Translations under genes and position numbers: made by a program
Notes under the pieces: generated by a model
Databases searched by the model: none
What the model was told of the DNA's origin: nothing
Seen by the model: only the letters and a program-made list of their open reading frames with translations
Origin: Escherichia coli
Lineage (GTDB): Bacteria; Pseudomonadota; Gammaproteobacteria; Enterobacterales; Enterobacteriaceae
Assembly: GCF_050920415.1 (NCBI RefSeq)
Contig: NZ_CP169309.1
DNA: 64,000 bases
Reading direction: 5' to 3' (one strand)
Shown: one piece after another, positions 1,793 through 4,824 of the stretch
How positions within the stretch are numbered: the stretch's first letter is position 1
Layout: each line of letters begins with the position of its first letter

Positions 1793-3883
1793 ATGGCAGT
1801 AAAGATTTCAGGTGTCCTGAAGGACGGAGCGGGTGAGCCTGTCGTAAACTGTGCGATTGAATTGCGTGCCAGAAGAACCAGTCCGACAGTTGTGGTTAAT
1901 ATTGTGGCAACCTGTCTTACGGGAAGTGATGGTGGGTATACTATTAATGCTGAGCCGGGATTTTATGATGTATTTTTGTCCCGCTCAGGGCATCCTCCTG
2001 TAAAGGCGGGGGAAATTTATGTTGCACCGACAGATGAGCCGGATACGCTGAATGCTTTTCTGGATGCACCAAAGGAGGGTGATTTACGCCCTGAGGTAAT
2101 GAAGCGTTTTGAGGAAATGATAAATACCGTTTTTCGCTTGTCTGAGCAGGTGGTCAGTGACAGGGAGAGAGCAGAAACAGCTGCTGATGATGCAATCAAT
2201 GCAGCAACATCTGCGGCGGTTAGTAAGGATGAGGCAGAAGAGCTAAAAAATCAGACACAGCAGAGCGCCGAAGCTGCAGCCGGAAACGCACAGCAGACGG
2301 CACAGGATGTGACGACAACCGCAACGGCCCGTGATGATGCGGAACGTTTTGCGGGTGAGGCAGAAAACAGCGCACAGTCATCAGGCACATCGCGGGATGA
2401 ATCAGTCGATGCCGCCGAACGTGCCCGCCTTTATCATAATGCCGCATCATCAGCTGCAACCAGCGCGGAAAATGCAGCAAATGCTGCACTCGGGCATGAA
2501 AATAACGCTGCCGAATACGCCCGACAGGCTAAAGACAGCCAGGATGCAGGTGCAGACAATGCGCAGGAAGCGAAACAGTACAGGGATGAGGCGCAGCAGA
2601 TAGTTGATGACCTGAATGCAACAAATGCCAGCACGACAGAAAAAGGTCTGGTGCAACTGTGTAGTGATACGGACAACGACAGCGATGAACTGGCTGCCAC
2701 GCCAAAGGCTGTCAAAGCCGTCATGGACGAAACGAAAACAAAAGCGCCACTGGACAGCCCGGCCTTCACCGGCACCCCAACCACCCCAACCCCACCGGAT
2801 GATGCCGCCGGTCTGGAAGCAGCGAACGCAGCGTTTGTGCGCAAACTGCTTGCTGCGCTGGTTGGCTCATCGCCGGAAGTTCTGGACACCCTGAACGAGC
2901 TGGCAGCGGCGCTGGGCAATGACCCGAACTTTGCGACGACAATCACAAACGCGCTGGCAGGCAAACAACCGCTTAATGACGTCTTAACGGCAATCAGCGC
3001 ACTGACGCAACGGGCAGATAATCTTCTGTACTTCAATACGGACGGGAATGCCTCACTGTCTCCGCTGTCAGAGAAGGCCCGCGCATTACTGGCGCATGAC
3101 ACGGCTGAAGCCATGCGCACGGAGCTTGAGCTGAACGCGGCTGCGACGATGGAACCCCAGAGTGATATCCGTGACCGCACACCGGGCAGGCTGGCCCTGT
3201 CCGGGATGTATGGGTTTGGACAGGCATTCACCAGCGCCGAAGCTCTGTCATTTAACGGACAGGCTGATTTCGTTATATGGCTGCAGACAGTCACCCCGGG
3301 GCGTTATGCGGTCAGTATTGCGGACTCCTCCACGCTGCTGAAGGGGACCACGAAATTTAACGGTATCATTGATGTGATGTGGTCACCGTCTGATAACGAC
3401 GAATCAGACACGGCGCGTAAATTCAAAACGCTGCTGTACTACAACCAGTATTACGAGGATGAGCACAGCATACATTGTATGCGTTATCGCTACAGTGGTA
3501 ACAGCTGGAATGCAACATCAAGCCTTATTGTGTATGACGGCAACTCCCTGGCATATCTGATGTCCTCAACCGCCGGTAATGGTCCGTTCTCATATTACAA
3601 ATACCCGGCCGTCGGTGTGCCGATAATGGCGGTATATCAGGGAGAAAGTTTTGGTGAAAATGCTTCTCTGGGACTCGGTGATACTGTGCCGGGTTCCCGT
3701 CTTGGTCCTCTGGCCATGAGTGCACAGGTTAGTGATACAGGGACATACGCATCCTCACCGCAGGTTGTGATTGGCGGTGCCGGTGAATACAACTTCCCCG
3801 GTCGTTACACGGCGCTTTCGGGCCTGGGTAACAATTATGGTACTCAGCGTGGCTTTATCGGTCTTTTTGTACGCATTGAGTAA
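1793..3883 (+). CDS. stf: Side tail fibre protein Stf (intact, about 696 aa)
   Basis: N-terminus MAVKISGVLKDG matches the lambda Stf start as recalled; Ala/Glu-rich repetitive middle region; divergent C-terminal receptor-binding part. Confidence 0.8.
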   Translation: MAVKISGVLKDGAGEPVVNCAIELRARRTSPTVVVNIVATCLTGSDGGYTINAEPGFYDVFLSRSGHPPVKAGEIYVAPTDEPDTLNAFLDAPKEGDLRPEVMKRFEEMINTVFRLSEQVVSDRERAETAADDAINAATSAAVSKDEAEELKNQTQQSAEAAAGNAQQTAQDVTTTATARDDAERFAGEAENSAQSSGTSRDESVDAAERARLYHNAASSAATSAENAANAALGHENNAAEYARQAKDSQDAGADNAQEAKQYRDEAQQIVDDLNATNASTTEKGLVQLCSDTDNDSDELAATPKAVKAVMDETKTKAPLDSPAFTGTPTTPTPPDDAAGLEAANAAFVRKLLAALVGSSPEVLDTLNELAAALGNDPNFATTITNALAGKQPLNDVLTAISALTQRADNLLYFNTDGNASLSPLSEKARALLAHDTAEAMRTELELNAAATMEPQSDIRDRTPGRLALSGMYGFGQAFTSAEALSFNGQADFVIWLQTVTPGRYAVSIADSSTLLKGTTKFNGIIDVMWSPSDNDESDTARKFKTLLYYNQYYEDEHSIHCMRYRYSGNSWNATSSLIVYDGNSLAYLMSSTAGNGPFSYYKYPAVGVPIMAVYQGESFGENASLGLGDTVPGSRLGPLAMSAQVSDTGTYASSPQVVIGGAGEYNFPGRYTALSGLGNNYGTQRGFIGLFVRIE

Positions 3884-3897
3884 TGAGGAAATCAGGC

Positions 3898-4470
3898 ATG
3901 AAAATCAGAGCGGTGAAAGGCATCAGAAACGCACATTATCTTGAAAATGGTGCGGTTGACTGCGAGGTGTTATTTGAAGGTGAAACGGAGTTCGCCCTGT
4001 ATACTGCCATACAGGATGATATGGCCCCGACAGGCCAGCATGTCTGGCAGGAGCTGCAAAGCGGGAAATGGGGCGAAATCGCCCCGTTCACCGTCACGCC
4101 GGAACTTATTGCAGCGGCAAAGGATGCCAAAAGGCGGGAAATTGAGGCATGGCGCGACAGTCAGGAAAACGTTGAGTTTATTTTCACGTTTGATGGCCGT
4201 CGTTTTGATGGCGGAAAAACCTCGCAGTCACGCCTTGCGCCCGTGGTTGCAACAGCGCAGGCCGGACTGCTTCCGGAGGGTTTTTTCTGGACTGATGCGG
4301 ATAATAACAACGTCGTACTGACCAGGGAGAAACTTATTGCGCTGAACGATGCCATGATGGTGGCCATGGTGGCGGAGGGCTTTAAAATCCACGAACGCCA
4401 GCGCGAGATGAAGGAACAACTGAATAATCTGAATGACTTGGCTTCAATTCGAGCGCTTGACGTTACGTAA
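3898..4470 (+). CDS. Putative tail fibre assembly/chaperone protein (Tfa-like by position; sequence diverged from lambda Tfa)
   Basis: About 190 aa ORF immediately after stf, with a TAATGA stop/start overlap at 3881-3885 and a GAGGA ribosome-binding site before the ATG at 3898; assignment is by position and size only. Confidence 0.45.
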   Translation: MKIRAVKGIRNAHYLENGAVDCEVLFEGETEFALYTAIQDDMAPTGQHVWQELQSGKWGEIAPFTVTPELIAAAKDAKRREIEAWRDSQENVEFIFTFDGRRFDGGKTSQSRLAPVVATAQAGLLPEGFFWTDADNNNVVLTREKLIALNDAMMVAMVAEGFKIHERQREMKEQLNNLNDLASIRALDVT

Positions 4471-4489
4471 TAAAAATCACTGATATGCC

Positions 4490-4620
4490 AGCCCCTTGTA
4501 AAGATATTGATCAGGGTTGTTTTGATGTGAATTAGATTTACATGGGGTGCTTTGGGGCATGTATGGGACAGAAATGTCTGTTTTGGGACATTTTGGGGCA
4601 TGGTTGGGACACTATAACAC
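4490..4620. repeat. Cluster of short direct repeats (tggggcatg x2, tgggaca x3) near the prophage end; possible integrase arm-type sites
   Basis: Repeated motifs visible at 4541-4612 between tfa and the yecE junction. Confidence 0.3.
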
Positions 4621-4713
4621 ATACGAACTTAACCGAATTTCGTATGGTGTTAATTTTTAACGTGTTGAATACACTAGAGAAAGCGAATGCTCTTGGGCGT
4701 TCTTTAGTGATTT

Positions 4714-4824
4714 TTAAAATAGTCCTGTCATGCAGTTAAAGTGGCGGGCATACTCTTCAAGGCTGGTGATCCCCAACCGCACCCATTTAGGATGCGACCA
4801 TTGTGGCAGACCGATGTAAATCAT
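4714..4824 (-). pseudogene. yecE: yecE 5' fragment (DUF72 protein) truncated by prophage integration
   Basis: Minus-strand ATG at 4824 overlaps the yecD stop (ATGA); translation [31 protein letters not shown] then runs into unrelated sequence and stops at 4714. Confidence 0.55.

Follow-up and report, generated by a model that had tools for sequence, protein, structure and literature searches.

TGGGRCA repeats at the attR edge of a yecE prophage of Escherichia coli: probable arm-type sites of an Arm-DNA-bind_2 integrase

Introduction

Site-specific recombination of lambdoid prophages is best understood for phage lambda, in which five arm-type sites, P1, P2 and P'1-P'3, are bound by the N-terminal domain of the integrase (Int), and in which the excisionase (Xis) acts on X1-X1.5-X2 in a head-to-tail manner. 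The arm-binding domains of the lambda and Tn916 integrases adopt an AP2-like fold built from three strands plus a helix. Closer to the locus described here are three systems. For the Rac prophage, a study of excision reported that XisR shifts an attR fragment and defined no arm sites (PMC4632033). For KplE1 (CPS-53), with IntS and TorI, arm-type P' sites and sites of the directionality factor have been mapped experimentally on the int-proximal arm, where they overlap other functions (PMC2951348). For the Stx phages that integrate into yecE, only the core duplication was defined, and the word 'arm' is absent from that paper (Nakamura et al. 2021, PMC8112680). Our literature search returned no description of a TGGGRCA motif, nor of arm-type sites for yecE, Stx or Rac-type integrases, and the motif appears to be new to the literature.

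The locus analysed here lies in a 64-kb stretch of E. coli DNA (the window), at the attR edge of a lambdoid prophage of ~46 kb inserted in yecE. Its layout resembles that of lambda attP. The tyrosine integrase is heterobivalent, its arm-binding N-domain being separate; inverted core sites flank a 7-bp overlap; and a short non-core motif is present in either arm. In the P' arm, three sites stand in tandem at about +59..+85 from the core and lie next to or overlap the end of int; the P-arm sites are 125-185 bp from the core, with an IHF-like site in the intervening DNA. Unlike in lambda, the motif is TGGGRCA instead of C/AAGTCACTAT, the N-domain belongs to Pfam Arm-DNA-bind_2 instead of Arm-DNA-bind_1, the P arm carries a contiguous, helically phased run of 5-6 copies where lambda has two at separate places, the int reading frame encloses the P' sites completely, and the excisionase is a DUF1233 protein, not lambda Xis.

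The likeness to Rac IntR/XisR extends to the protein families (Int 45% identical, an Arm-DNA-bind_2-type N-terminus, a DUF1233 Xis) and to the arrangement, with five repeats in tandem in the attR arm and another two to three where int ends in the attL arm, yet the Rac repeat is GGGGCAAA instead of TGGGRCA, and core and host gene differ. The yecE Stx phages share host target and core with our prophage; the integrases are 75% identical and the same TGGGRCA pairs are found in the arms of these phages, but outside the motif and a core-proximal block their arm sequence differs from that of the window. KplE1 is set apart by another integrase lineage and another motif (its P' sites share TAAA), by an arm that is overlapped by the int promoter and not by the int 3' end, and by its target, tRNA-argW.

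Results

The repeats lie in the phage-derived arm of attR

Starting from yecE, the prophage carries int, xis, early, lysis, head and tail genes, J, lom, a tail-fibre gene and tfa; 262 bp of non-coding DNA follow, and then the 5' fragment of yecE and yecD. A sequence-only reading of the window had placed a cluster of direct repeats between tfa and the yecE junction, and this setting is correct, as the DUF4376 gene stops at 4470 and the junction occupies 4733-4739 (Table 1). We defined the core by aligning uninterrupted yecE (attB) with both junctions. The attP reconstructed in this way is GTCATG-CAGTTAA-CATGAC, in which perfect inverted core sites flank the 7-bp overlap, and the 21-bp att published for yecE Stx phages, GTCATGCAGTTAAAGTGGCGG (PMC8112680), corresponds to 4727-4747 of the window. 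Since attB, attL and attR have only CAGTTAA in common, the TGGGRCA repeats must be assigned to the phage P arm, 125-185 bp from the crossover.

Positions on the attL side and in the prophage body are given in coordinates of the source-genome sequence that holds them (L001), most of which lies outside the window. The prophage is defective: IS66 has inserted into it, the tape-measure gene is split, and J, U and several lysis genes are frameshifted; these defects fall at L001 16763-19351 and 34397-45250, in the prophage body and mostly outside the window, in which J ends near 1061. Despite this, int, xis and both att arms look intact. Given the defects, this strain may have ceased to use the TGGGRCA sites. 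The yecE copy at attL (L001 1898-2668) has been annotated as complete, its first ~15 codons being phage-derived (IKISKLVFNTRHVNC...); this hybrid gene has a non-ATG start and overlaps the 3' end of int.

Table 1. Features of the attR region, in window coordinates; distances are from the overlap centre at 4736.
Feature	Position	Strand	Remarks
Tail-fibre assembly gene (DUF4376), last phage gene before the arm	3883-4470	+	Pfam DUF4376, E 1e-19; RefSeq annotation
Lineage-specific spacer between tfa and arm	4471-4550		1/15 columns of 4536-4550 invariant among yecE arms
S0 TGGGGTG, decayed arm-type site	4543-4549	+	10 bp before S1; perfect TGGGGCA at this place in ydfJ-type arms
Conserved P arm of attR, phage-derived side	4551-4732		Homology among yecE prophages
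S1 TGGGGCA, putative Int arm-type site	4553-4559	+	-183..-177
S2 TGGGACA, putative Int arm-type site	4564-4570	+	-172..-166
S3 TGGGACA, putative Int arm-type site	4584-4590	+	-152..-146
S4 TGGGGCA, putative Int arm-type site	4594-4600	+	-142..-136; invariant in 8/8 yecE arms
S5 TGGGACA, putative Int arm-type site	4605-4611	+	-131..-125; invariant in 8/8 yecE arms
Inverted repeat CATACGAA-N11-TTCGTATG	4620-4646		Extends to 4616-4652; 21/28 columns invariant
IHF-like site ATTCAACACGTTA	4658-4670	-	One mismatch from WATCAANNNNTTR
Near-invariant core-proximal block ATGCTCTTGGGCGTTCTTTAGTGATTTTTAAAAT	4687-4720		31/34 columns invariant
yecE 5' fragment at attR	4714-4824	-	ORF reads on into phage DNA, ending in MTGLF and a stop
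Core-type half-site C, GTCATG	4727-4732		In attP, perfect inverted partner of CATGAC across the overlap
7-bp overlap (crossover) CAGTTAA	4733-4739		Only segment common to attB, attL and attR

Five helically phased copies form the densest cluster of the window

All copies that had been claimed within 4541-4612 were recovered from the letters of the window: tggggcatg occurs at 4553-4561 and 4594-4602, and tgggaca at 4564-4570, 4584-4590 and 4605-4611. Merged into the single motif TGGGRCA, they amount to five plus-strand copies within 59 bp (4553-4611), with start-to-start spacings of 11, 20, 10 and 11 bp, that is, near whole helical turns. A repeat search describes the same region as a 20-nt composite unit, TTTGGGGCATGkwTGGGACA, present at 4551-4570 and 4592-4611 with 90% identity.

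Over the whole 64-kb window and both strands, TGGGRCA has 18 matches, a number at chance level. It is their clustering that stands out. A de novo scan, run in 70-bp windows over all 7-mers that have a single transition-degenerate position, returned the TGGGRCA cluster as the maximum of the window, with five copies; of 200 sequences of 64 kb simulated with a first-order Markov model, 198 had a maximum of three, two a maximum of four and none reached five. A looser statistic that admits any 7-mer with at most one mismatch is less decisive, the observed value of five being reached in 4 of 60 simulations. The significance that we would attach to the cluster rests mainly on the comparative sequence data.

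The distal arm is most constrained at the motif positions

Homologues of the arm, fossil copies included, occur in 860 of 5426 complete E. coli genomes. The homology among the yecE prophages examined starts, in each of them, exactly at 4551, with the first repeat unit; upstream of this position the relatives carry unrelated cargo (dinI with a LexA box, eib or nleC), or tfa follows directly. Conservation was tabulated over eight yecE arms, including that of the O104:H4 prophage, whose Xis is identical (same accession) and whose Int is near-identical, with an arm that is only 77% identical. Since the proteins are the same or nearly so, the differences between these two arms sample what the same proteins tolerate.

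Among the eight arms, 28 of the 30 columns at motif positions 1-4, 6 and 7 are invariant, compared with 2 of 5 at motif position 5, 19 of 28 in the spacers within the cluster, 1 of 15 in the pre-arm stretch 4536-4550 and 16 of 40 in the middle of the arm (4647-4686). Overall, 78% of the columns of the cluster are invariant, in arms that are otherwise down to 77% identical. At three homologous sites, motif position 5 is A in some arms and G in others, so that TGGGGCA and TGGGACA represent one site class; a division into two classes, with TGGGGCATG bound by one protein and TGGGACA by another, was ruled out by this A/G swap at homologous sites between lineages. In related yecE prophages, the repeats are therefore not only present at the prophage end but form the best-conserved part of its distal arm, and they recur in the int-proximal arm.

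The same motif occurs in the opposite arm, inside int

When the attR and attL regions are aligned locally, the best match is the TGGGRCA repeat itself, not yecE. The P' arm carries TGGTGAC, TGGGACA and TGGGACA at L001 2687, 2696 and 2707 (2687-2713), at +59..+85 from the core, 9 and 11 bp apart and in the same orientation as in the P arm. All three belong to the 3'-terminal codons of int (...YVPMMSHSHQ...) and are read in two different frames, which indicates that the repeat is a DNA-level feature. In relatives, O104:H4 included, one P' copy is TGGGGCA instead of TGGGACA, and the Int tail has Pro in place of Ser; the C-terminal 'P-x-M-[SP]-H' that is conserved in this integrase clade is probably imposed by the DNA sites. 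The motif, present in both the P and the P' arm, differs from the core sequence GTCATG/CATGAC.

The motif follows the integrase N-domain across lineages

Int (437 aa) combines an N-domain at residues about 5-72, matched by Pfam Arm-DNA-bind_2 (match 7-70, E 9.9e-24), with a phage-integrase catalytic domain. Xis, encoded beside int, is a DUF1233 excisionase of 78 aa. An AF2 model of the N-terminal 100 residues of Int (pLDDT 80.5) shows three strands followed by a long helix; this predicted fold would be consistent, if weakly, with the AP2-like fold of arm-binding domains. A Foldseek search of the N-domain model against the PDB gave no significant match.

TGGGRCA is found in both arms in four integrase lineages that are 60-100% identical, and the lineages with the motif use at least three insertion sites, namely yecE, ydfJ and that of PA12. 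Stx2_EH2201 (Int 75%), integrated in yecE, has three sites in the P arm and two in the P' arm; the short-tailed Stx2 phage PA12 (Int 68%), which uses an attB other than yecE, has four P sites and two P' sites, the latter inside int; and the ydfJ prophages PSS-15 and PSJ-22 have three sites in the P arm. A scan of viral contigs with Int recovered only integrated copies, 96-99% identical, and no free attP of the exact lineage, and the contiguous attP of mEp460 (Int 60%) was taken as a substitute. It carries two P sites and, about 210 bp away at the 3' end of int, two P' sites; its core region resembles ydfJ-type junctions. Rac of K-12 (IntR 45%, N-domain 48%), inserted in ttcA, has a related but shifted motif, GGGGCAAA, with five copies in attR and two to three in attL. 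These tandem repeats lie at about 2305-2360 of the Rac attR sequence (L092) and at about 1473-1497 of the attL sequence (L091), the latter at the end of intR.

With the Int of our prophage as reference, the N-domains of EH2201 and mEp460 are 90% and 81% identical, compared with 75% and 60% for the whole integrase and 47% and 45% for Xis. Given an N-domain conserved at 81-90%, an Xis at 45-47% and several core specificities, the motif tracks the Int N-domain, and neither core specificity nor Xis. It recurs in otherwise unrelated arm sequences of further integrase lineages, and 21 sites yield the consensus t-n-t-W-TGGGRCA-t.

Other elements of the arm and its left flank

Between the cluster and the core, the arm contains further conserved elements (Table 1). 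The inverted repeat has, in its extended form (AACACATACGAA...TTCGTATGGTGTT), a fold z of -3.8, and its T-run is not conserved. Its palindromic half-sites occur as two alleles, CATACG..CGTATG and CATATG..CATATG, in which both half-sites change together, and a dimeric accessory protein is a candidate binder. That the alleles track Xis was ruled out, for the O104:H4 prophage has the other allele with an identical Xis. At the place of the IHF-like site, a sister lineage carries a perfect AATCAAnnnnTTG; the window as a whole contains 58 matches to the IHF consensus against 59.5 expected, so that this site, taken alone, is at chance level and serves only as a positional hint. The core-proximal block is also recognisable in the arms of Stx2_EH2201 and PA12, both with diverged Int and Xis and PA12 with another core.

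Two further inverted matches involve the left flank. The repeat CCCCTTGTAAA / TTTACATGGGG, at 4492-4502 and 4537-4547, is 91% complementary, with 34 nt between its arms, and lies outside the conserved arm; its right arm overlaps S0, and both arms are conserved in ydfJ-type prophages. A perfect 11-nt inverted match, TAAAAATCACT / AGTGATTTTTA, links 4471-4481 in the tfa stop region with 4706-4716 in the core-proximal block. It is A+T-rich and borderline with respect to chance, and its left copy is not conserved in ydfJ-type relatives. We also considered an inverted relic of yecE, given matches of 4471-4560 to the yecE 5' fragment. This was ruled out, as the arms are not collinear, chance alone should yield matches of the 12/14 type in 400 bp, and ydfJ-type prophages have these left-hand sequences without a yecE context.

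Mosaic arms and fossil attR sites

In ydfJ prophages, the region downstream of tfa and the distal arm match 4471-4574 with 86% identity; 4551-4732, in turn, is of the yecE type. Judged from these sequence relationships, the P arm is a mosaic, with the recombinant junction falling within arm sites common to both integrase lineages.

Collinear copies of dinI with its LexA box, P arm, core and yecE 5' fragment are present in phi80, in mEp237 and in the PPompW prophages of O157, O145 and O26. In phi80 (JX871397, L002) the relic occupies 3001-3240, and in the PPompW prophage of O157:H7 (L004) 2501-2673, homologous to 4551/4591-4830 of the window. S3 has been lost from the phi80 and PPompW fossil copies through a 10-bp deletion, and in O157 the sites have decayed. 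The collinear structure suggests that the 'attB-in-PP_1' of the earlier report (PMC8112680) is a captured attR relic and not naive yecE.

Discussion

With this in mind, we consider it likely that the repeats are arm-type sites for the N-domain of Int, located in the distal P arm of the attR of a prophage in yecE. Of the explanations offered by the sequence-only reading, that of integrase arm-type sites at the prophage edge is the one that the sequence comparison supports, with the motif recurring in related prophage ends and in both arms. Indeed, the features by which lambda-type arm sites are recognised at the level of sequence are all found here: the location, the N-domain of the integrase, a motif common to both arms, and a motif that follows the N-domain.

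The geometry of the cluster could also fit the excisionase. Here the repeats would be sites for the DUF1233 Xis, on which a head-to-tail polymer would bend the P arm for excision. All copies lie on one strand with 10-11 bp spacing, as in an Xis microfilament, and a DUF1233 excisionase gene stands beside int in this very prophage; moreover, the Rac homologue XisR shifts an attR fragment in EMSA (PMC4632033). Against this stands the occurrence of the same motif pair in the P' arm, inside int, in every lineage examined, an argument that holds only in part, since the KplE1 directionality factor TorI also has sites on the int-proximal arm (PMC2951348). In addition, the motif is unchanged with Xis only 45-47% identical, compared with 81-90% for the Int N-domain, and the A/G flips at homologous sites leave no distinct TGGGGCATG class on which a second protein might act. 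RDF sites would be expected as repeats confined to the bent arm and covarying with the excisionase, and the TGGGRCA copies do neither. Accessory-factor sites, the other binding-site explanation of the sequence-only reading, are thus less likely than Int sites, given a motif that stays constant and is also present in the P' arm, and we regard Xis binding as an improbable account of the cluster.

It is much harder to see the repeats as a functionless by-product, either of slippage or duplication or of a cargo deletion between tfa and att that left a scar of a b-region. The cargo genes of relatives (dinI, eib, nleC) are indeed absent here between tfa and the arm, the stretch 4471-4574 looks recombinant and ydfJ-type, and the looser repeat statistic was matched in a few simulations (4/60). 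However, the invariance of the cluster (78% of columns) is greatest at the motif-specific positions, and the motif recurs both in the opposite arm and in unrelated arms of four further integrase lineages. Nor does 4551-4612 lend support to the suggested remnant of a deleted b-region, because homology begins exactly at 4551 and the cargo slot lies just outside it. Altogether, an origin without function seems very unlikely.

Equally implausible is a small protein (the 65-aa ORF at 4542-4739, or one from an internal Met at 4563) or a structured RNA: a plus-strand frame is open from ~4551 to the core in 8/8 yecE arms, one identical genome annotates a 'hypothetical protein' under the match, and the plus strand of 4536-4615 folds somewhat better than shuffled sequences (z -2.8), but the variable columns are spread 20/18/20 over codon positions with replacements that are radical in the variable part, conservation is lacking at the start, the 10-bp deletion of the fossil copies breaks the frame, and neither ORF65 nor the minus-strand ORF153 has a Pfam or PHROG family. 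ORF153 was rejected as a gene, as a stop breaks it in the sister lineage, and the stretch does not look like coding sequence, in line with what had been presumed. The only Rfam match was a sub-threshold chance match inside tfa, and 4471-4740 contains no sigma-70 promoter and no intrinsic terminator.

If the repeats are Int arm-type sites, a mechanism can be outlined by analogy with lambda. The catalytic and core-binding domains of the heterobivalent Int would hold the core, GTCATG-CAGTTAA-CATGAC, and its N-domain would grip the TGGGRCA sites, whose distance from the core is 125-185 bp in the P arm and 59-85 bp in the P' arm. IHF and/or Xis would bend the DNA between arm sites and core, such that one Int protomer could bridge the two, and the bridging Int would assemble the intasome for integration or excision. 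With 8-9 sites (5+1 in P, 3 in P'), there are more sites than the four N-domains of an Int tetramer, which suggests that different subsets serve integration and excision. Int binding, the subsets of sites used and the positions of IHF and Xis are what we infer from this comparison. Since the P arm has 5-6 contiguous sites, as opposed to the two separated ones of lambda, the lambda mechanism may not transfer in detail.

A more speculative extension, which we put forward tentatively and hold to be possible rather than likely, is that TGGGRCA constitutes an 'arm code' shared by the whole IntR-like (Arm-DNA-bind_2) clade, whose members differ in core specificity (yecE, ydfJ, the PA12 site) and of which Rac would have a shifted version of the code. 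With a shared code, the arms would be interchangeable modules. [quoted passage not shown] Likewise, the contiguous, phased array of 5-6 sites would assemble Int N-domains in a manner unlike that of the dispersed P1/P2 of lambda.

In summary, the integrase clade to which this prophage belongs mobilises many E. coli prophages, among them Stx1 and Stx2 phages at yecE and Rac of K-12. The general picture of site-specific recombination is unchanged by our analysis, as arm-type sites are an expected part of a lambda-like integration machine and will not surprise a specialist. The arm motif and the anatomy of the site offer targets for mutagenesis of excision and integration and help in reading prophage-in-prophage sites, and an arm that starts at the first TGGGRCA makes the calling of prophage boundaries more precise. 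Thus, the finding is useful for annotating and manipulating a medically relevant clade of prophages.
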